64,000 nt of DNA from Mytilus trossulus (Eukaryota): assembly GCF_036588685.1 (NCBI RefSeq), contig NC_086385.1, forward strand, positions 9,176,001-9,240,000, in the 5' to 3' direction. The position numbers and the translations under genes were made by a program. Positions 14,820-64,000 of the stretch are shown here, in pieces. The first letter of the stretch is position 1; each line of letters starts with the position of its first letter. Below the pieces are notes generated by a model. It had not been told where the DNA came from and made no database searches. It saw only the letters and a list, made by a program, of their open reading frames with translations.

Positions 14820-17731
14820 AAATCCACGAAGATTTAATAAACGAGTGGGGCAATGAAGACAATAAGGTGGTCAAAACTAGAGCTATTAGTCGAATAGAAG
14901 AACTTCTCAAATATACAGATGTCGTAGTGGCGGTAGGTCCCTCGGGCTGTGGTAAGTCCACCGCTATTCACCATGTTGCTCTTTGGCTGCATAATCAAGA
15001 AGGTTATACAATTGTTCCTGTCCACAGTCCAGAAGAAATAATTTCTTACTGCAAACCGACATATAAACAAGTTTTTGTAATTGATGACGTGTGTGGCATA
15101 TCTACAATAGACATTGGACTGGTGAATCGTTGGACTACATGGGCAATTGATATAGAACAAGTGATTGCGGATCACAAAATAAAAATTTTGTTATCATGCA
15201 GAAAGCACATTTATCTCGATCGTTCATTTGCGGGTGTAGAACTATTGTCGAAAACAGCCTGTGATCTTGTTTTAAGTTACAGACTAACAGAAATTGAAAG
15301 AAATCAAATAGCTAGTATCTACTTAACAGAGAGAGAGATAAATGCTTTAAAAAAGTCAAATCTAGATAAAAAATTTAGCTTCTTTCCACTTTTATGTTCC
15401 CTTTATTCAAAACAGAAAGTAACAACTGTTCAGAATTTCTTTGCCTATCCGATCAGCGTTTTAGGACGTGATCTGAACTTGTTGAGGAAAGCCACAGATC
15501 AAACAACATTGGCTACAATGAGTCTGTTCATTGCCTTCAACAATAATTTAGATAAAAATATGTTAGTAAGATCAAACGATATGACAGAACTGTTGGAAGC
15601 CATATCCGATCATTTCTATCTTCCAGCGCGTTTTTCAATAAAAGTCGTCACTTCTGAATTACACAAGCTCGAGATGTCTTACGTGAAGAAAACAGTTTCC
15701 ACCTACAGAATACTTCATGACAGGATATATGATATTTTTCTAGCATTTTGTGGGGAACATTTCTTTGACCTGGTTCTTGAGGTAGCCCATAGAGACGTAA
15801 TACGAGATAGACTTGTACTAGAATCAGTACTAAAGGAAGACCAAAACCTAATAAACGAACAAAATGTTATAACAGTCCCTGATAAAGTAGAAGACCATTA
15901 TTTTGACCGAATTGTGAAAGACATTAAAAAAATATCTATTTTGCATGTATTTGACAATAGGCAGTTAAAATGTATTACTTTCCGCAAAAAGTTGTTCCTT
16001 TACATTGAGCAGAGGCTCGACATTAGAGAAATGTTATCGGCGTTATCTGTTTGTGAAATATCTAACATACTTCTATCGATGACCAGTCAATTTTACTGGG
16101 ACTTGGTTCCAATTCTTTTAACAAAACATGTAGATGTAAATGTAAGTGATTGGCGAGGTACACCTTTGTATTTGGCTTCTAAGCAAGGACACATTGAAAA
16201 TGCAAAGATACTGTTAGATCATCATGCCGATCCGAGTATTTGTAATGAGAAAAATGAACCACCTTTATTTGTTGCTTCTGAGGAGGGTCAAACCGAAATT
16301 GTTAGATCTTTGTTAAAACATAAATGTAATCCTAATATCTGTAATAAAAGCAAGAAATCTCCCGTGTTTATTGCTTCTAGCAGAGGTTATTTTGATATTG
16401 TAAGGTTATTATTAGAACATAAATGTGATCCTAAGCTATGTGATGATCTGAATACATCACCTCTGTTTATTGCTTCCGCTGGAGGGTATACTGCCATTGT
16501 TAAATTATTATTAGAACATAACTGTGATCCTAATGTCTGTAATGATTACCCTATGTCACCTTTGTTTGTAGCAACTCTGAACGGATATATCGATATTATT
16601 AGATTGTTGTTAGAACATAACTGTGATCCTAATGTATGTGATCGTGAAAATATGTCACCTTTGTTTGTAGCATCTGAATATAGACTTGCTGATATTGTTA
16701 GATTATTGTTAGAATATAAATGTGATCCTAACATATGTAATCGTCATAATATGTCACCTTTGTTTGTTGCTTCTACATGCAAAAGCGGTTATGATATTGT
16801 CAAATTATTATTAGAATATAAATGTGATCCTAACATCTGCAACTGTCAAAATATGTCCCCTTTGTTTGTTGCTTCTAGATGTAAAGGTTGTTATGATATA
16901 GTCAAATTATTGCTACAATATAAATGTGATCCTAACATCTGTAACAATCAGAATATCTCACCTTTGTTTGTTGCATCTCAGAACGAACATGTCGATATTA
17001 TTAGATTATTGTTAGAAAATAACTCGGATCCTAATAAATGTAATAATAAAAATGAATCACCTTTACTTATTGCTTCTAGTAAAGGCAATCATGACATTGC
17101 AAAATTATTGTTAAAGCATAAATGTAACTCGCATGTAAATTATGATAACCGGGAATCACCTTTAATGATTGCTTCTTCGGAAGGTTATACAAATATTGTT
17201 AGATTATTATTAGAACATAAGTGTGATCCCAACTTGTGTCGTTGTCTGGGTATGTCGCCTTTATTTGCTGCATCTGCGAATGGTCATATAGATATTGTTA
17301 GAATATTGCTAGATCATAATTGTGATCCTAGAAAAAGCATTCCTGATAGAAACCACTTAGTTGGTACTATGTCACCTTCGTATATTGCTTCTTTAAAAGG
17401 ATATATTGATGTTGTTGGATTATTGATAGAACATAAATGTGATCCTAATATCTATGATTCTGAAAAGTGGATGCCGCCTGTATTGCATGCATCTGTAAGG
17501 GGTCACACCGATATGGTAAAATTACTTTTAGAACAGAACTGTGATCCTAACATTTGTAATGATAAACATGAATCAGCTTTATTCATTGCTTCTTATAGAG
17601 GTCATACTGATATTGTAAGATTATTATTGCAAAACAACTGTGATCCTGATATCTGCAATCATATAAATAGATCACCTTTATTTATTGCTTTACAGGAGGG
17701 TCATATTCAAATTGTAAAATTATTATTATAA
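14820..17731 (+). CDS. Coding exon 4: STAND P-loop NTPase (nSTAND3-like), helical/winged-helix region and 16 ankyrin repeats
   Basis: Acceptor ttatag ending at 14819 inside ORF 14807..17731. Walker A GPSGCGKS (14936-14959), Walker B VFVIDDVCG (~15071), sensor-1-like ILLSCR, FPLLC (GxP-equivalent), ILHD (MHD-like). From ~16150, 16 repeats of ~33 aa with consensus SPLFxASxxGxxDIVRLLLEHxCDPNIC. Confidence 0.93.
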
Positions 17732-18140
17732 TACAACTGTGATCTAAATATCTGCAAATATTCTTTTAATGAACCCCTTTTATTTATTGCTTGTCAGGAG
17801 GGTCATATTCAAATTGTAAAATTATTATTGGAATGCAATAGTAATATGACACTTGATGACAAGGAAAACTTTGCATCCATAGCGATGATGAATGGTCATA
17901 CAGATATTGCGAAACTGGTGAAAGAACATGAATGAGGCTGTAATATATTTAAAATAGAAAAGAATAAGTTGTATCTACTACTAATAATAATGGTCATGTT
18001 GATACTGCAAAATTGTTTCCAGTAGACAACTACAATCTGACAATTTGTAATTTAAAACAACATGAATCATCTTTATGCATTGCTTTGAGGGTGGACCATC
18101 CTGGTTTAATGAGACTATTGTTAAAACTTGAATTCCCTTA
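17732..18140 (+). pseudogene. Ankyrin repeats downstream of the premature stop (in frame to 17935, then decayed relics)
   Basis: After the TAA the same frame reads YNCDLNICKYSFNEPLLFIACQEGHIQIVKLLLECNSNMTLDDKENFASIAMMNGHTDIAKLVKEHE*. Further downstream another frame reads NGHVDTAKLFPVDNYNLTICNLKQHESSLCIALRVDHPGLMRLLLKLEFP*. Confidence 0.8.
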
Positions 18141-24457: not shown

Positions 24458-24768
24458 TCCCCGAGGGTATCACCAGCCCAGTAGTCAGCACTTCGGTGTT
24501 GACATGAATATCAATTATATGGTCCTTTTTATAAATTTTCTGTTTACAAAACTTTGAATTTTTCGAAAAACTAAGGTTTTTCTTACCCCAGGAGTAGATA
24601 ACCTTAGTCGTATTTCACAACTTTTTGGAATTTTGGATCCTCAATGCTCTTCAACTTTGTATTTATTTGGCCTTTTAACTATTTTGATCTGAGCGTCACT
24701 GATGAGTCTTATGTAGACGAAACGCGCGTCTGGCGTATGAAATTATAATCCTGGTACTTTTGATAACT
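24458..24768 (+). mobile_element. Retrozyme-like element, family A (near full unit)
   Basis: Near-identical to 31820-32134; contains the structured 5' motif, the C(UUCG)G hairpin and the intact hammerhead. Confidence 0.85.
24693..24736 (+). ncRNA. Minimal type I hammerhead ribozyme, intact core (family A)
   Basis: GCGTCA-CTGATGA-GTCT(TATGT)AGAC-GAA-ACGCGCGT-C^TGGCGT. Stem I GCGUCA/UGGCGU, CUGAUGA box, stem II, GAAA, short palindromic stem III, GUC cleavage after 24730. Confidence 0.9.
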
Positions 24769-25677
24769 TTTATTGTTTTAATCTGCATAACTCATATCTG
24801 CTCAAACCAAAATGATAAAACAAGTGAATGTCAAAATGATGTAATTGATTTTAACCTCATAAACCTATAAAATTGCCTAAGTATTCATTTAAAAAAATGT
24901 CTTGAAAATCTACAAAATTCATAGGTTTGTATAAAGGTTTTTCCTCAACAAACGTAAGAATCATATTTCATGAGATAATCATGTGAACTGGCTTATCTTA
25001 CCTCATTAACATGTCACTTTGATAGCTAAAGAGAAAAGTTTCGTAAATGACCTTAATTTTCTACTCTCACATATGTATTAGTAAACTTGCAACATGTATA
25101 TTCTTCTTATCACCTTTTTTCAATTTTGCCCCTATATCAATGTTATGCTATAATTAAGAATGAGGTAAAAGAAGGGGAATTGACTTGTAGCAATACAAGG
25201 GAAGTTAGTTTGAAAATTATTTGCAAAGAAACTAAAACAACATAACATTATAGTTTATATATAACTATATATACAAACACATATTCTACGTAAACAAATA
25301 ATTCTAAATTGTATAATATAATACATAACTTAATATACCATGATCATTTGCATGCATATTTTTTAATCCATTTAAATTTACTTAATTGTAAAATTGATAT
25401 ACATGTAATCAAACAATCAGTGATGGAGAAATTACAAGGTCGATGTCTCAAGAAATGTATAAATTATGAGTTCATAACATTCTGACAACCACCTATGATA
25501 CAGAAAGAAACTCGGTTAATTCTCATTGAAGATGGATAACCTTGAAACTTCCCAAATTCTAAAATGTGTAATAAATCACAAATTAAGGGTCAAAGCACTA
25601 AAAATGAAGGCGCGAAGTTTCTCTCACGTATTTTAACACAGTAATTACAAATAGGACGAACACGTCAACTGAAAATA

Positions 25678-25932: not shown

Positions 25933-26059
25933 AAAAAGTAAGCTTTCAGAGAAAAAAATATATATTTTGAATTCTGATTTCCTCCATACCTTGGAAAAAA
26001 TAATTTGATTGATAGCGTTGAAGAAATGAATTTAGTTGTTAGTGTTTCCCTAAAATGCC

Positions 26060-26591: not shown

Positions 26592-29500
26592 TCCCAAAGT
26601 AGCAGGTGGGTAAAGTTACGAAACTTTTTTTTGTGAGGTCCAAAGTTGGGGTCGGGTAACCCTACCACCCCCCTTATTTAATTCATAGCAAAGTCCCTAC
26701 GACAAAGCTTTTCTCTACACTAGGTACACTCTATAGGCAATTGACTGAGCTTGCCTGGACACAAAGATCCAGGTGGGCAAAGTTACCGAACTTTTTATAT
26801 TGAGGTCCAAGGGTGCGGTCGGCAAACCCTACCACCCCCTTAAATTGTTCAGCGCAAAGTTCCTACGGCAAAGCTTTTGTCCACACTCGATAGGCAATTG
26901 CCTAAGCTTGCATGGACCCAAAGTTTCAGGTGGTTAAGTTAAGGACTTTTGTTTTAGGTCCAAAGTTGGGGTCGGGTGACCCTTCCATCCCCCTGATTTA
27001 ATTCATAGCAAAGTCCCTAAGGCAAAGCTTTTGTCTACACTAGGTACACTCGATCGGCAATTGCCAAAGCTTACCTGGACCCAAAGTTTTAGGTGGGCAA
27101 AGTTACTGAACTTTTTTTTAGGTCCAAAGTTGAATTGGGGTGACCCTACCATCCCCCTTATTTAATTCATAGCAAAGTCATTACGGCAAAGCTTTTGTGC
27201 ACATCAGACACACTTGATAGGCAATTGCCTAAGCTTGCATGGACCCAAAGATCCAGGTGGGTAATGTTGAGGACTTTTGTTTTAGGTCCAAAGTTGGGGA
27301 TAGGTGACCCTACTTTCCCTCTTATTAATTTCATAGCAAAGTCCCTACGGCAAAACTTTTGTCCATACTGGGTATACCCGATAGGTAATTTCATCAGCTT
27401 GCCTTGACCCAAGGATCCAGGTGGGTAAAATTACCGAACTTTTATATTGAGGTCCAAAGTTGTGGTCGGTATACCCTACCATCCCCTTAAATAGTTCAGG
27501 ATAAAGTCCCTACGGCAAACCTTTGTCCACACTAGGTACACTCGATAGGCAATTGCCTAAGCTTTCATGGACCCAATTAAAGATCCAGGTAGGTAAAGTT
27601 AAGGACTTTTATTTTAGGTCCAACGTTGAGGTCGGATGACCCTTCCATCCCCCTGATTTACTTCATAGCAAATTCCCTAAGGCAAAGCTTTTGTCCACAC
27701 TAGGTACACTCAATAGGCAATTGCCTTAGCTTGCCTGGATCGAAAGACCAAGGTGGGCAAAGTTACGGAACTTTTTTTAGGTCCAAAGTTGGGGTCGGGT
27801 GACCCTACCATCCCCCTTATTTAATTCATAGCAAAGTCATTACGACAAAGCCTTTGTCCCCACGAGGTACACTCGATATGTAATTTCCTAAGCTTGCCTG
27901 GACCCAAAGACGCAGTTGGGTAAAGTTAAGGAACTTTTTGTTTTGAGGTTCAATTAAAGTTGAGCTTGGGTGACCCTACCATCCCCCTTATTTAATTCAT
28001 AGCAAAGTCATTACGGCAAAGCTTTTTTCCCCACGAGGTACACTCGATATGTAATTTCCTAAGCTTGCCTGGACCCAAAGACGCAGTTGGGTAAAGTTAA
28101 GGAACTTTTTGTTTTGAGGTTCAATTAAAGTTGAGCTTGGGTGACCCTACCATCCCCCTTATTTAATTCATAGCAAAGTCCCTACGGCAAAGCTTTTGTC
28201 CACACTAGATACACTCGATAGGCAATTGCCTTATCTTTCATGGACCCAAAGATCCAGTTGGGTAAAGTTAAGGACTTTTGTTTTAGGTCCAAAGTTGGGG
28301 TCGGGTAACCCTTCCACCCCTCTGATTTAATTCTTAGCAAAGTCTCTAAGGCAAAGCTTTTGTCCACACTAGGTACACTCGATAGGCAATTGCCAAAGTT
28401 TACCCGGACCCAAAGTTGTAGGTGGACAAAGTAACTTAACTTTTTTTAGGTCCAAAGTTGGGGTCGGGTAACCCTACCATCCCCCTTATTTTATTCATAG
28501 CAAAGTCATTACGGCAAAGCTTTTGTCCACACTAGGTACACTCGATAGGCAATTGCCTAAGCTTGCATGGACCCAAAGATCCAGGTGGGTAAAGTTGAGG
28601 ACTTTTGTTTTAGGTCCAAAGTTGGGGTCGGTAGACCCTTCCACCCCCCTGATTTAATTCTTTGCAAAGTCACTAAGGCAAAGCTTTTGTCCATACTAGG
28701 TACACTAGATAGGCAATTGCCGAAGCTTACCTGGTCCCAAAGTTTTAGGTGGACAAAGTAACTGAACTTTTTTTAGGTCCAAAGTTGGGGTTGGGTGACC
28801 CTTCCATCCCCTTTATTTAATTCATAGCAAAGTCATTACGACAAAGCTTTTGTCCATACAAGGTACACGCGAAAGGTAATTTCCTAAGCTTGCCTGGACC
28901 TAAAGATCCAGGTTGGTCAAGTTACCGAATTTTTTTATATTGAGGTCCAAAGTTGTGGTCGGCAGACCCTACCATCCCCTTGAAATAGTTTAGAGCAAAG
29001 TCCCTACGGCAGAGCTTTTGTCCACACTAGGTACACTCGATAGGCAATTGCCTAAGCTTTCATGGACCCAAAGATCCAGGTGGATAAAGTTAAGGACTTT
29101 TGTTTAAGGTACAAATTTGAGGTCGGGTGATCCTTCCATTTGCCTGATGTAATTCATAGCAAAGTCCCTAAGGCAAACCTTTGTCCACACTAGGTACACT
29201 CGATAGGCAATTGCCTAAGCTTTCATGGACCCAATTAAAGATCCAGGTAGGTAGAGTTAAGGACTTTTATTTTAGGTCCAAAGTTGAGGTCGGGTGACCC
29301 TTCCATCCCCCTGATTTAATTCATAGCAAATTCCCTAAGGCAAAGCTTTTGTCCACACTAGGTACACTCAATAGGCAATTGCCTTAGCTTGCCTGGACCG
29401 AAAGACCAAGGTGGGCAAAGTTACAGAACTTTTTTTAGGTCCAAAGTTGGGGTCGGGTGACCCTACCATCCCCCTTATTTAATTCATAGCAAAGTCATTA

Positions 29501-31328
29501 CGGCAAAGCTTTTTTCCCCACGAGGTACACTCGATATGTAATTTCCTAAGCTTGCCTGGACCCAAAGACGCAGTTGGGTAAAGTTAAGGAACTTTTTGTT
29601 TTGAGGTTCAATTAAAGTTGAGCTTGGGTGACCCTACCATCCCCCTTATTTAATTCATAGCAAAGTCCCTACGACAAAGCTTTTGTCCACACTAAATACA
29701 CTCGATAGGCAATTGCCTAATCTTTCATGGACCCAAAGATCCAGTTGGGTAAAGTTAAGGACTTTTTTTTTAGGTCCAAAGTTGGGGTCGGGTAACCCTT
29801 CCACCCCTCTGATTTAATTCTTAGCAAAGTCTCTAAGGCAAAGCTTTTGTCCACACTAGGTACACTCGATAGGCAATTGCCTAAGCTTGCATGGACCCAA
29901 AGATCCAGGTGGGTAAAGTTGAGGACTTTTGTTTTAGGTCCAAAGTTGGGGGTCGGTAGACCCTTCCACCCCCCTGATTTAATTCTTTGCAAAGTCACTA
30001 AGGCAAAGCTTTTGTCCATACTAGGTACACTAGATAGGCAATTGCCGAAGCTTACCTGGTCCCAAAGTTTTAGGTGGACAAAGTAACTGAACTTTTTTTA
30101 GGTCCAAAGTTGGGGTTGGGTGACCCTTCCATCCCCCTTATTTAATTCATAGCAAAGTCATTACGACAAAGCTTTTGTCCATACAAGGTACACTCGAAAG
30201 GTAATTTCCTAAGCTTGCCTGGACCTAAAGATCCAGGTTGGTAAAGTTACCGATTTTTTTTATATTGAGGTCCAAAGTTGTGGTCGGCAGACCCTACCAT
30301 CCCCTTGAAATAGTTTAGAGCAAAGTCCCTACGGCAGAGCTTTTGTCCACACTAGGTACACTCGATAGGCAATTGCATAAGCTTTCATGGACCCAAAGAT
30401 CCAGGTGGGTAAAGTTAAGGACTTTTGTTTAAGGTACAAATTTGAGGTCGGGTGATCCTTCCATTTGCCTGATGTAATTCATAGCAAATTCCCTAAGGCA
30501 AAGCTTTTGTCCACACTAGGTACGCTCGATAGGCAATTGCCTTAGCTTGCCTGGACTGAAAGACCCAGGTGGGCAAAGTTACGGAACTTTTTATTATGAG
30601 GTCCAAAGTTCAGGTCGGGTAACCCTACTATCCCCCTTATTTAATTCAAAGGAGAGTCCATACGGCAAAGCTTTTGTCCCCACTAAGTACACTCGATAGG
30701 TAATTTCCTAAGCTTGCCTGACCCCAAAGACGCAGTTTGGTAAAGTTACGGAACTTTTTGTTTTGAGGTACTAAGTTGAGCTTGGGTGACCCTACCTTCC
30801 CCCTTATTTAATTCATAGCAAAGTCCCTACGGCAAAGCTTTTCTCCACACTAGGTGCACTCGATAGTAAATTGCCTAAGCTTGCCCGGACCCCAAAATCC
30901 AGTTGAGTTAAGTAACGGAACTTTTTATTATGAGGTCCAAAGTTGGGGTCGGGTGACCCTACCATTCCCCTTATTTAATTCATAGCAAAGTCCCTACGGC
31001 AAAGCTTTTCTCCACACTACGTACACTCGATAGTCAATTGCCTAAGCTTGCCCGGACCCAAAAATCCAGTTGAGTTAAGTTATGGAACTTTTTATTATGA
31101 GGTCCAAAGCTGGGGTCGGGTGACCCTACCATTCCCCTTATTTAATTCATAGAATAGTCCCTACGGTAAAGCTTTGGATCATACTAGGTACACTCGATAG
31201 GCAATTCACTGGGCTAGCTTGACCCCAAAGATGCAGGTGGGTAAAGTAACGGAACTTTTTATATTGAGGTTCAAAGTTGTGCTCGGGTGACCTATCAACC
31301 CCTTTATTAATTCAAAGCAAAGTCCCTA
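26592..31328 (+). repeat. Satellite array, ~165-bp monomer, ~28-29 copies, with higher-order structure
   Basis: AGGTCCAAAGTTGGGGTCGGGTGACCCTACC...GCAAAGCTTTTGTCCACACTAGGTACACTCGATAGGCAATTGCC recurs at ~26637, 26803, 26957, 27121, 27285, 27450, 27617, 27779 and onward. Confidence 0.97.
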
Positions 31329-32655
31329 TCCCAACTTTGGACTTTGATCCGTAACTTTACTCACCTGTGTATTTAAGCCCAGGCAACCTTAGGCAAGTGT
31401 CTACCCTATGTACCTAGTGGGCAAAAATATTTGCCGTAGGGAAAATTTTATATTCGAATGAAGGGGATGGTAGTGTCACCCAACCCCAACTTTGGACCTA
31501 AAAAAGAGTTCCGTAACTTTACCCACCTGGGCATTTGGGCCTAGGCGCCCTTAGGCAAGTGTGTATCCTTTGTACCTAGTGGGCAAAAAAGCTTTGCCGT
31601 AGGGAAAATTTTATGAACGAAAGAAAAGGGATGGTAGAGTCGCCCTACCCCAACTTTGGACTTAAAAGAACAGTTCCGAAACTTTACCCGCCTGGGTATT
31701 TGGCCCAAGGCAACATTAGACAAGTGTCTTTCTTTTGTCTGGCGTATAAAATTATAATCCTGGTACTTTTGATTACTATTTACATCACTGGGTTGATGCC
31801 ACTGCTGGTGGACGTTTCGTCCCCGAGGGAATCACCAGCCCAGTAGTCAGCACTTCGGTGTTGACATGAATATCAATTATATGGTCATTTTTATAAAGTT
31901 TCTGTTTACAAAACTTTGATTTTTTTTGAAAAACTAAGGATTTTCTTACCCCAGGAGTAGATTACCTAAGCCGTATTTGGCACAACTTTTTGGAATTTTG
32001 AATCCTCAATGCTCTTCAACTTTGTATTTATTTGGCTTTTTAACGCTTTTGATCTGAGCGTCACTGATGAGTCTTTTGTAGACGATACGCGCGTCTGGCG
32101 TATAAAATTATAATCCTGGTACTTTTGATTACTATTTTGTACCTAGTGGGCAAAAAAAGCTTTGCCGTAAGGAAAATTTGATGAACGAAAGAAGAGGGAT
32201 AGTAGTGTCACCCTACCCCAACTTTGGACCTCAAAAAAACAGTTCCGAAACTTTACCCGCCTGGGTATTTGGGCCAAGGCATTCTTAGACAAGTGTCTAT
32301 CTTTTGTACCTAGTGGGCAAAAAAGGCTTTACCGTAAGGAAAATTTGATGAATGAAAGAAGGGGGTTGGTAGGGTCAGCCTATCCCAACTTTGGACCTAA
32401 AAAAAAAGTTCCGTAACTTTACCCACCTGGATGTTTAAGCCCAGGCAACCTTATGCAAGTGTCTATCCTTTGTACTTAGTGGGCAAATTAGCTTCGCCGT
32501 AGGGAAAATTTTATGAACGAAAGAAGAGGGGCGGTAAGGTCACCCTACCCCAACTTTGGATCTAAAAAAAGTTCCGTAACTTTACCAACCTTAGTATTTT
32601 GGCCCAGGCATCCTTAGGCAAGTGTCTTTTATTTGTACCTAGTGGGCATAAAAGC
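31324..32655 (-). repeat. Inverted block of the same satellite (~5-6 more diverged monomers), interrupted by a retrozyme
   Basis: CCCCAACTTTGGACCT...TTCCGTAACTTTACCCACCTGG...GTACCTAGTGGGCAAAAAAGCTTTGCCGTAGGG is the reverse complement of the upstream monomer. Confidence 0.93.
31739..32134 (+). mobile_element. Retrozyme-like element family A, 356-nt unit plus ~40-nt terminal redundancy, inserted in the satellite
   Basis: TGGCGTATAAAATTATAATCCTGGTACTTTTGATTACTA occurs at 31740 and 32096. Flanked by TTTTGT at 31733-31738 and 32135-32140. Hammerhead at 32058-32101 has GAAA changed to GATA. Confidence 0.9.
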
Positions 32656-37477: not shown

Positions 37478-37642
37478 TTATCAAAGGAACCAGGATTATA
37501 ATTGAATACGCCACATCAGTGAGGCTCATATCAAAAAATTTATAAAGCCAATATATTTGATATTTATGTCAACACCTAAGAGCTGACTACTGGGCTTGTG
37601 ATACCGTCGGGGACGAAATGTCCACCAACAGTTGCATCGACT
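37478..37642 (-). mobile_element. Family A retrozyme derivative with deleted hammerhead core
   Basis: Reverse complement contains the 5' structured motif and CTCACTGATG|TGGCGTATTCAATTATAATCCTGGTTCCTTTGATA. Located just upstream of lectin coding exon 1. Confidence 0.75.
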
Positions 37643-45760: not shown

Positions 45761-46733
45761 CTTATATCGATAATCGAAAAAAAGGGTCATAAGTTAATAG
45801 TTATCAAATACCATATATAATCTTCTAAGATCTTGTGCATAGTCAGTGTGATAAAATTTAGTAACGCTGTGATGTGCTCTTTCCAATGCAATATTAAAGT
45901 TCCCTCCCCCCCCCAAAAAAAAAGAAAGATTCGCCTTCAAGTAAAATCTTTTCATTAATTGATTCATCAGTGCTTTTTTACTATTTTGATCTGAGCGTCA
46001 CTGATGTGTCTTATATAGACAAAATTATACAATTATAATCCTGGTACTTTTGATAACTACTTTCCTTTATACAAAAAATATGAGAAAGAAAAAACAGGTC
46101 CACGATTGACACTAGTAAAAAATCTTCAAACTGTATCTAGAGATATTCCTCTTTTATCCAATATTCTATAAATCTAAAAAAAATATTGCTTGTTAGCAAC
46201 GAGGATGACATGTTAACGTGTACTTTTAAAAAGACACGTGACATATATTTGGGGTTGGAACATGTCCCTATCGACTATCTCAAATATTGGAAACTTGTTG
46301 TCGAAATGAACAATGCACTAATATGTTTCCACAACTCAAAAAGGATGCAAAAGCATATGTAAACCAGATTAAGTTACCTTGAAGTTCATAATCATAAACA
46401 GTCTGAACATTTACGTTGTGTGGTACCCCTTTCTTTCTGTTTACATAAGATACTTCGTCCTTTGATGCCACCGGCGTTTGCACATAAGTAAAATAATTGT
46501 ACAGCCACACATTTTGAAAATCCATAATAAAGATGACACAAAATTGGTCAATGCAACAAGTTATTTTTTTTTATTCAAGTTTTAGCATTGGTCCCATAAT
46601 TAAAAAAAAACCACGACACTGTTTCTTTGCCAAACCCATTTTATCATCAATTTTCTGTAGGGAAAAGAACGCTTTGCAATTCAACCCAGCTGCGTAAACT
46701 TCAATAAGGTTGAGTGTTAAGTAATTCTGTTAA

Positions 46734-56043: not shown

Positions 56044-56690
56044 ACGTCCCCGCGGGTATCACCAGCCCAGTTTTCTGCAATTATAATGTCATTTTTTACA
56101 AAGGTATTGTTTGCCAAAGTATGAATTATTCTAAATACTTAGACTTTCTTAACCCAGGCATAGATTACCGTAGCCGTATTTGGTCCAACTTTTTGAAATT
56201 TCAGGTCCTCAATGCTCTTCAATTCTTTACTTGTTTGGCTTTGTAATTATTTTTTATCCTGAGCGTCACTAATGAGTCTTAGGCAGACGAAACGCGCGTC
56301 TTGCGTATCATATTATAAGCCTGGTACTGTTGACAATTATTAACACCACTTGGTTTATGGCAATGCTGGAAGACGTTTCATTCACGATGATATCACCAAC
56401 TTAGTAGTCGGCACTTCGGTGTTTACACATGTTATGTGGTAATTGTTTGAAATTTTCTGATTGCAAAAGTATGAACTATTCGAAATACTAATGATTTTCT
56501 TATCTCGGGTATATATTAGAATACATTTTATTGGTACAACTTTTTGCAAGTGTAGGTCCACAATGCTCTTAAACATTCTACTTGTTTGGCTTTCTTACTA
56601 TTTTTCATCTGATCGAGACTGATTAGTCTTATGAAGAAGAAAAGCCCGTCTGACGTATCAAATTATAAGCCTGTTACCTTTGATAATTAC
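56044..56690 (+). mobile_element. Tandem dimer of degenerate family A retrozyme units
   Basis: Two hammerhead remnants with GTC sites at 56298-56300 and 56648-56650 (350 nt apart). The first has CTAATGA instead of CTGATGA; the second is more decayed. Confidence 0.8.
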
Positions 56691-61790: not shown

Positions 61791-64000
61791 TGTTAACTAT
61801 GAAAACTAGATTTCAACTCAGAGTGGGTCCATAGCTGAAATCAAATGGTATATAACCAATAACTACTATGCAAAGTTTCATGCTTTCCTCGTCAAGTGAG
61901 CAATTCTGCTCTATATCTGCATCAATCGGCCGGACTATAATATTTATTCAATTTAGCAAATATGTACTCAATAAGCATCATGTAAATCATTAAATAAAGA
62001 AACATGAAATTTACAGTTTTAAACAAGGGAAACAATAAAGAACATTCTGAAACTTATTAAACTAGTAAGGGAGACAACTACAAACACACTTTCATATTCA
62101 GTCAACGTTTATCACTATGCATTATTTATAAATTATGCGGCGAAGAAAAATGATTTTGATCAATACAGTGACTGTACCTATTATAACAAATAGATGCTAA
62201 CAACAGAATCAAAGGTTGAAATGAGCAAAGAATGACGGTCCATTCAAGATAATTGTCTGTGTCTATTGAAAATAAGTTGTGATTGCATTGCGCATTTCAA
62301 CTTCCTGTAAAAACATAGAGTTATTGTCATTTAATCTAGTGGCAGGTAGAAAGGCTAAATTAATGACCTAAGCCTTCATTCGATAATAAGGATAGTGTAA
62401 TGTATTCAGCTACACAAAATAAATTAAAAATTATATCAAGTCTTTCAGTCCCGTTTTCATAAATGGGTCGAAAAAAATCGTTTTAAAACTTACCATAAAA
62501 AATATTAATACTTGTTTGAATTTATTTCAGACAAAACGAATATACAAAGAAAGCGTTCAAAGCTGATTGCTAGGCAATATAATGCAGACAATATATTGTC
62601 AAGTTGTCCCATAAAAAGCATCACATTCTGATAGAGATCAAAATGTCTTCCTGAAATAATGTCACTGCCATGTTCATGATATATCGAAGACAATAATAAA
62701 CAAAATAGATATAACATCGTAATGTTACTATACAGCATGCCTATACCATGTGATAATAGTTATCAAAGGTACCGTCATTTTAATTTAATACGCCACTAAT
62801 AAAAATATAGGCCAAAGTGGAACAGCATCATCTGATTTTAGGCACTTGGCACAGCTTAAACAATGAAAAATTATTAACTCGCTTGACGTATTTTTTTTAA
62901 ATGTACCAATTTCTGTTTGTTGAATAAGAGCTTAAAATGTCAAAAACATAGACAGGTTGCTTTGTTACGTATCAGATGAAAAAAAGGAATAAAAAACAAA
63001 ACCTATAAAGATCAACAATCCAATCAACTATACAAAATATCACGTTAAGTAAGGAAACACTTATAGGAAATAACGCATGACTTGATGACATCATGTTTTG
63101 ATTTTGTGTCACACCACCAGTTGCTCACTCCAATTTAGAACGTATGTAAAAGCAGGTCTACTCGGACATAAAATAGTGCATTTGATATCATTGTTTACTT
63201 AAACTAACCAACAAATTGGCAGAAATAAAACTTTTGGTGAAAGAAAAATATATTAAGACCATTTTGAGCTACAATTTACTTGTTTATGAGTTTGCATTCA
63301 AAATTGAGGACTAATGCACTCTATGGTATACTATTTAAGATTTCCAGAAAACCAGGGGTTATTTTTAGTGGTACCTCTATTCGGAAGACCTCTTCTTTCT
63401 TATATGATTTTAAACATCTGTTGAAAATTGGCATGTAGAAAGCTGATAAATGTACAATTCAGGAAATACCGGGTTTCTATGAAGTTAAACTTAAGGTAAA
63501 ATATTTAGATAGCTGTGAAAATAGCAAAATTTAGTTGAACAGATAGTGACTTTTAATTGGTGTCTGACATCTAAATGCGAAATGCGGTGAAACATCTAAA
63601 TCACAAAACAATTATTTTTTTTGTCTTAACTGATCATGTGAAATAATTATAGCAACATTTCAATCTTTTTTGGGGCAAAATGTCACATATTGCATATTAA
63701 GAGCCTAAAACTTGAGTTTGTGCTATTTTTAGCTTTCCTCACCCTGACAATATGCTTTGATATAAAAAATGTCCTTAATTGTTATAAATGCACAGAAAGT
63801 TGTTTCTATGGTGATAAACATGAAAACATAGGTTGTTTACTACCCTCAACCAAATTTTGTCATGCAGATTTAATGAATTTATTTGTTTTTTACCCCTTAT
63901 ATCATTGTGTCATACTATTTACTTGGCAGATAGCAAAGCCTAATGTAAACACTGCAGAAACTCACAAAAATACCATTCATTATTCCAAATGAAATTTTAA

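Follow-up and report, generated by a model that had tools for sequence, protein, structure and literature searches.

What sets the ends of a genomic copy of a self-cutting RNA element: the cut made by its own ribozyme, or the enzyme that copies the RNA into DNA? The question is raised by a locus of the mussel Mytilus trossulus (assembly GCF_036588685.1, contig NC_086385.1, positions 9,176,001 to 9,240,000; we refer to this entire stretch of 64,000 nucleotides (nt) as the window), at which a hammerhead-bearing insertion begins beside the ribozyme cleavage site. It bears on the enzyme that copies animal retrozymes, on the form of RNA that it copies and on the place where copying starts. Taken alone, the focal insertion is unremarkable, one more 1.1-turn copy of a self-cutting RNA element that is already known; the value of the analysis lies in the ends of the whole family, which point to a start site, to an enzyme that may do the copying and is present in intact 1000-aa copies, and to a 63-nt segment that may be its signal. 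The overall explanation that we consider probable is a retrozyme insertion copied by a Naiad element, with an internal start at a hairpin, a random stop and a template that was likely circular.

The insert occupies positions 31739–32134 on the forward strand, within a block of 164–167-bp satellite monomers (31330–32654), and is flanked by a target-site duplication (TSD), TTTTGT, at 31733–31738 and 32135–32140. When the insert and one TTTTGT are taken out, a monomer of 167 nt is restored that is 83–90% identical to its four neighbours (162–166 nt; 1–5 gap columns), as the original prediction had claimed. That prediction had also called the pre-insertion sequence known; it can indeed be rebuilt, although from the neighbouring monomers only, and a search for the empty allele in contigs of 4 DNA runs found none among the matches listed; one contig extends no more than 24 nt past the 5′ junction. 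The proposed course of the insert, through one 356-nt unit and its hammerhead into a repeat of the first 40 nt or so, agrees with its length (356 + 40 = 396 nt, approximately 1.11 units) and with terminal repeats of 45 nt without a mismatch. We number the unit from the first nucleotide after the hammerhead cut (+1, position 31740), such that the segment from +1 to +39 lies first at 31740–31778 and again, identically, at 32096–32134, where it forms the 3′ tail and reaches A39, the fixed end of the family as judged from the 3′-end counts given below. The predicted start at the cleavage site holds to within 1–3 nt, but the insert opens with the C of GUC (−1), not with the 5′ end of the cleaved RNA (+1). 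The TSD shares TTT with the continuation of the unit and GT with the GTC of the element (the last 2 nt of the left copy double as this GT), so the 5′ junction can be placed anywhere from −3 to −1. Compared with the nearest relatives in the sample, the copy has differences at 13 of 355 sites and is therefore not among the youngest.

The membership of the family was assessed by the features of retrozymes: a tandem unit of 150–450 bp, a GC content under 45–50%, no coding capacity, a type I hammerhead and TSDs of more than 4 bp. Here the unit is 355–356 nt long and occurs in tandem arrays, has a GC content of 0.379 and is non-coding (the longest open reading frame wholly inside the focal unit has 34 aa); the TSD is 6 bp at the focal site and 5–8 bp in 31 of 157 insertions of the family. 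Two window copies match the type I hammerhead model (Rfam RF00163) at scores below its cut-off of 34 bits: the focal one at 32058–32101 (forward strand, cut after C32095; 28.3 bits, E = 0.001) and that at 24693 (33.0 bits, E = 2.9e-05). An Rfam search at the gathering threshold accordingly gave zero matches, and folding of 32040–32134 alone did not recover the hammerhead (z = −0.13). From its size and features, as opposed to an alignment with clones, the family would be a metazoan non-LTR retrozyme of the kind found in mussels. The 1.3-Gb genome contains 4662 exact copies of the word from +1 to +27 and 13128 of the hammerhead core, and retrozyme arrays reach around 37 kb. In an array of about this size (G000:C1:269268-306853, loci L031–L060), variant patterns recur among units, which is a sign of local amplification.

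The focal core reads GATA in place of GAAA (T32086), and the focal hammerhead is predicted from this change to be inactive. GATA is one of 4 substitutions private to the focal copy, is found in 0 of 91 other insertions and likely arose after insertion; about 98% of the RNA reads of the family carry GAAA. We considered whether GATA had caused the length of 1.1 units and rejected this as unnecessary, because nine other 1.1-unit copies start at −3 to +1 and GATA is private.

The 3′ end is shared across the family. A pattern for ends at +39 to +43 has 1451 matches in the genome, and in three sets of loci that were selected by their 5′ junctions the 3′ end fell at +37 to +45 in 37 of 40, 21 of 26 and 17 of 24 cases, or 75 of 90 in total (102 loci minus 10 with internal deletions and 2 that reach the edge of the fetched DNA; the first two sets must by design extend to at least +22 to +27). 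These counts bear out the fixed priming site that had been suggested. The reading of the insertion as a footprint of target-primed reverse transcription is likewise strengthened: among the 157 insertions with both ends, the 31 with a duplication of at least 5 nt directly after A39 (5–8 nt) exceed a shuffled null (mean 5.2, maximum 12). Twenty-five of the 31 duplications begin with TT, as does the right copy at the focal site, and 16 overlap the element by 1–2 nt at the 5′ side. As the unit itself goes on with TTT past A39, an AA in the target could pair with a UU in the template.

The 5′ ends behave differently, and it is here that the original prediction fails: its genome-wide endpoint check showed 3′ ends concentrated at a fixed site, whereas 5′ ends showed no excess at the cleavage site. 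A pattern for junctions at −3 to +1 has 49 matches (11 at +1, 8 at −1, 13 at −2, 15 at −3 and 2 internal variants), and a pattern of the same design for −6 to −3 has 70 (22 at −6, 14 at −5, 7 at −4, 14 at −3 and 13 internal). Genome-wide, 47 junctions at −3 to +1 thus stand against 57 at −6 to −3 (P = 0.38), without a rise at +1; a variant with a GC deletion probably inflates the count at −6. The classes were tallied by eye, and a script applied to 42 of the 49 gave the same ones. A far control window at −33 to −30, with 117 matches for 13128 cores (0.9%) compared with 49 for 4662 (1.05%) at the cleavage site, counts for less here, since the two sets of cores differ in the subfamilies and array content that they draw on.

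A second sample was taken from the other end of the element. The 100 3′ ends at the head of the list, which all lie on contig C1, gave 93 resolved insertions (3 duplicates were dropped and 4 extended past the fetched DNA). Four of the 93 begin at −3 to +1, compared with 1.6 expected under a constant stop rate (P = 0.08); as 13 begin at +2 to +14, this small excess reflects simply that short inserts are common. Not one of 87 first passes stopped at +1 (upper bound 3.4%). Insert lengths in this sample (10 of up to 39 nt, 54 of 40–394 nt, 17 of 395–749 nt and 16 longer) decay smoothly, with a mean run of around 390 nt. The 42 inserts that start at −3 to +1 fall, by eye, into classes of 0.1, 1.1, 2.1, 3.1 and more units with 26, 10, 4, 0 and 2 members, and the ten with 1.1 units include the focal copy. 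Its start beside the cleavage site is a matter of chance.

What lies beside the fixed end is a 63-nt bulged hairpin at +45 to +107 (31784–31846, forward strand; the fold of 31765–31870 has z = −3.6), which begins about 6 nt beyond it and is common to the retrozyme and to the 5′ leader of Naiad elements; it is predicted to be an internal-initiation signal. The retrozyme and Naiad segments are 86–87% identical and fold alike, and two pairs that differ on both sides between the families remain paired (95% of cells; 0 of 500 shuffles), in sequences that are few and related. Retrozyme ends fall at −8 to 0 of the hairpin. Young Naiad loci end at −4 to +2 of it in 18 of 19 cases; when old fragments are included, 55 of 95 aligned Naiad ends fall at −8 to +2. 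The sequences upstream of the retrozyme and Naiad ends are unrelated, so the hairpin itself is the shared element. In the retrozyme family, insertions therefore end at a fixed point within the RNA next to a stem-loop, the mark by which internal initiation was judged.

The Naiad side of the comparison was built from an RT fragment at locus L181 (150 scored matches among 49472 candidates). The hairpin lies just before the open reading frame in 6 of the 12 long-frame Naiad loci fetched; the remaining 6 are truncated before it. An intact unit is 3370 bp long and has a 1000-aa frame with GIY-YIG, CxC, DKA and RT in Naiad order; the features against which it was compared were an N-terminal GIY-YIG, CxC, DKA, a C-terminal RT and a length of 3.4–4.4 kb. 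The assignment rests on this motif order, using diagnostic features from the available part of PMC8557442, and on Pfam matches to RVT_1 (E = 1.8e-4) and GIY-YIG (E = 0.033), both of which are below the curated cut-offs. A search of one strand of the L271 unit with a single pattern for the canonical hammerhead core (CTGAnGA..GAAA) found no match. Naiad TSDs are weakly above the null (4 of 29; mean 0.76, maximum 4), and 5 of 29 Naiad inserts, which have no hammerhead core, are longer than a single unit (1.05–2.2 units). Directly upstream of the retrozyme tails, a search for an autonomous partner found no flank in common apart from duplicates. Judged by the hairpin, in a comparison that covered Naiad among the PLE families, it is likely that Naiad supplies the enzyme that copies the retrozyme.

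At L271, L272 and L282 (G000:C58, C12 and C82), Naiad units of 3370 bp stand intact and in tandem, with frames of 1000 aa, and are candidates for expression; the intact 1000-aa protein is likewise present at L273 and L274. Retrozyme and Naiad pieces often adjoin or nest (L159, L171, L190, L218, L272, L274 and L275), which may reflect a shared target preference or abundance.

In the internal-start model, which we regard as quite probable, the Naiad protein would bind the hairpin at +45 to +107 and its enzyme would nick T-rich DNA with a stagger of 5–7 nt. Priming would take place at about +39 to +41, where AA of the target would pair with UU of the template; copying would then go back across the ribozyme junction and on around the unit, to end at a random point where the enzyme falls off, and the new end would be joined through 0–4 nt of microhomology. 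At the focal site the enzyme would have stopped after 396–398 nt, near the cleavage site by chance. A wholly DNA-level origin, by contraction of a longer array to 1.1 units or by recombination copying without reverse transcription, draws on the observation that arrays change their unit number after insertion (L284 and L285), but the clean 6-nt TSD right after A39 obeys the rule of the family, and we consider this origin very improbable. The conclusions from the endpoints would hold even for a contracted array, because contraction would keep the original ends.

The ribozyme junction bears on which form of the RNA served as the template. Across 173 passes there is no insertion or deletion at −3 to +3. 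Template jumps tend to leave junction indels, as known from work on R2, and their absence argues against a monomer with a free 5′ end across which the enzyme jumped. Run-off at such an end, whether in this way or on a dimer cut upstream with the inner, GATA-bearing hammerhead left uncut, would account for a focal start that lies within 1–3 nt of the cleavage site; the mutation of the inner hammerhead fits, and cleaved RNA ends at +1 appear to exist: in one of three raw-read RNA runs, 112 molecules end there, next to the edge of the reference. However, the +1 ends that appear in RNA leave no mark in DNA, where they show no excess, and linear cleaved templates are disfavoured for this reason; furthermore, the insert has at least a C lying 5′ of the cut, and GATA is a private change of the focal copy. 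Run-off is thus improbable for the focal copy and is largely refuted for the family as a whole. Of the predicted circular or multimeric self-cleaved RNA, the part that survives is a template that runs through the ribozyme site, while the evidence speaks against the self-cleaved linear form, which has a free 5′ end.

A template without a free end at the ribozyme could be a monomeric circle or an uncleaved multimer, and the circle is more likely. The multimer, a read-through transcript of a homogeneous tandem array copied by the same enzyme from the same start, is a rather unlikely alternative that has several points in its favour. Inserts of more than one unit are made by hammerhead-free Naiads too, and so do not call for a circle; the long arrays are available as sources; unprocessed RNA was the main substrate of Poseidon_Ac in vitro in the available account (PMC11167929); and RNA reads that cross the junction (155, 193 and 410 in the three runs) are compatible with circles and multimers alike. 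These reads are mostly of the hammerhead strand and come from one study of a related organism, possibly of another species. On the other side, if a multimer were cut upstream by the ribozyme that it carries, +1 ends would result, and such ends are seen in one of the three RNA runs but not in DNA; the linear share of retrozyme RNA in mussels is under 5% to 25% in the accessible part of PMC7229834. Turns within one insertion differ by a median of 1.05%, compared with 3.28% from other insertions; they are identical in 5 of 31 insertions, and in the 1.9-unit insertion L157 five private variants are present in both turns. Identical turns and private variants shared between turns point to a single-unit bottleneck, although divergence within an insertion is smaller than the distance to the nearest other insertion in just 15 of the 31. 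Within the Naiad model we lean somewhat towards the circle. The fuller proposal, that circles act as rolling-circle templates for a hammerhead-free Naiad enzyme by way of a borrowed 63-nt hairpin that fixes the start of copying at a distance of a few bases, with the ribozyme only making the template endless and cleaved linear RNAs excluded, is tentative and, in our estimate, falls somewhat short of an even chance. We rejected array length as proof of rolling-circle turns, because arrays expand later by unequal exchange: long arrays contain staggered shared variants and their unit number changes after insertion, and so array length does not equal the turns of the enzyme. Some RNA reads have the same hammerhead core but a different sequence from +8 (behind 32102–32104), which indicates a second expressed hammerhead family.

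The element itself is of a known kind. It resembles the non-LTR retrozyme of Mytilus galloprovincialis (Cervera and de la Pena 2020, PMC7229834), which has a type I hammerhead, 350–390-bp repeats of low GC content, thousands of copies and duplications of more than 4 bp, and which is expressed, its RNA being mainly circles. The available part of that report proposes PLE mobilization from circles; unlike the present study, it maps no insertion ends, gives no start site and names no PLE clade. Reverse transcription by Poseidon_Ac initiates internally (Frangieh et al. 2024, PMC11167929), and the likeness extends to a start within the RNA, at a stem-loop that lies 3′ of the hammerhead, to AT-rich targets and to insertion ends that mark the start site. 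As far as the accessible text describes it, Poseidon_Ac is autonomous, has a C-terminal endonuclease and two start sites, and was studied with linear test RNA, whereas the present retrozyme is non-coding and has one main end and a likely partner that has no hammerhead. That candidate partner is like the Naiad PLEs of Craig et al. 2021 (PMC8557442) in its N-terminal GIY-YIG, CxC, DKA and RT, in its partial tandems and in having no hammerhead core; the portion of that paper available to us suggests that hammerheads may parasitize PLEs, and describes for Naiads neither a shared 5′ hairpin nor a non-autonomous hammerhead passenger. Retrozymes have been proposed as PLE passengers (PMC7229834; bioRxiv 10.64898/2026.07.22.740005). 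The second of these sources (Li et al. 2026), in its accessible part, ties retrozymes to PLE terminal repeats and allows for local tandem amplification, as here, but deals mostly with vertebrates and with homology over the whole pLTR and contains no endpoint analysis; here the stretch in common with the candidate partner is only 63 nt long. In the available parts of the literature, we found neither endpoint mapping nor a Naiad hairpin for retrozymes. New in this study is the evidence that the endpoints provide against a linear cleaved template.

Further copies in the window that end at +39 to +42 lie at 24458–24771, 45972–46062, 56078–56689 and 62755–62795, and those at 26055, 35565 and 43342 stop short of this end. 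The copy at 62755–62795, an old one on the reverse strand, starts at +1 (62795). Three other old copies, at 37513 (reverse strand), 42268 and 50208 (both forward strand), have no hammerhead core and have flanking letters in common beyond the usual end; we considered a hammerhead-less subfamily, but its exact pattern is present once in the genome, and the three are therefore likely local duplicates of one decayed copy. The 164-bp satellite switches orientation at 31320–31340, running one way at 26603–31328 and the other way from around 31330 to 32654, with the insert in the inverted block. Elsewhere in the window, positions 16260–17829 contain tandem, coding-like repeats of 99 bp with a period of 33 codons, which we take to be ankyrin-like.
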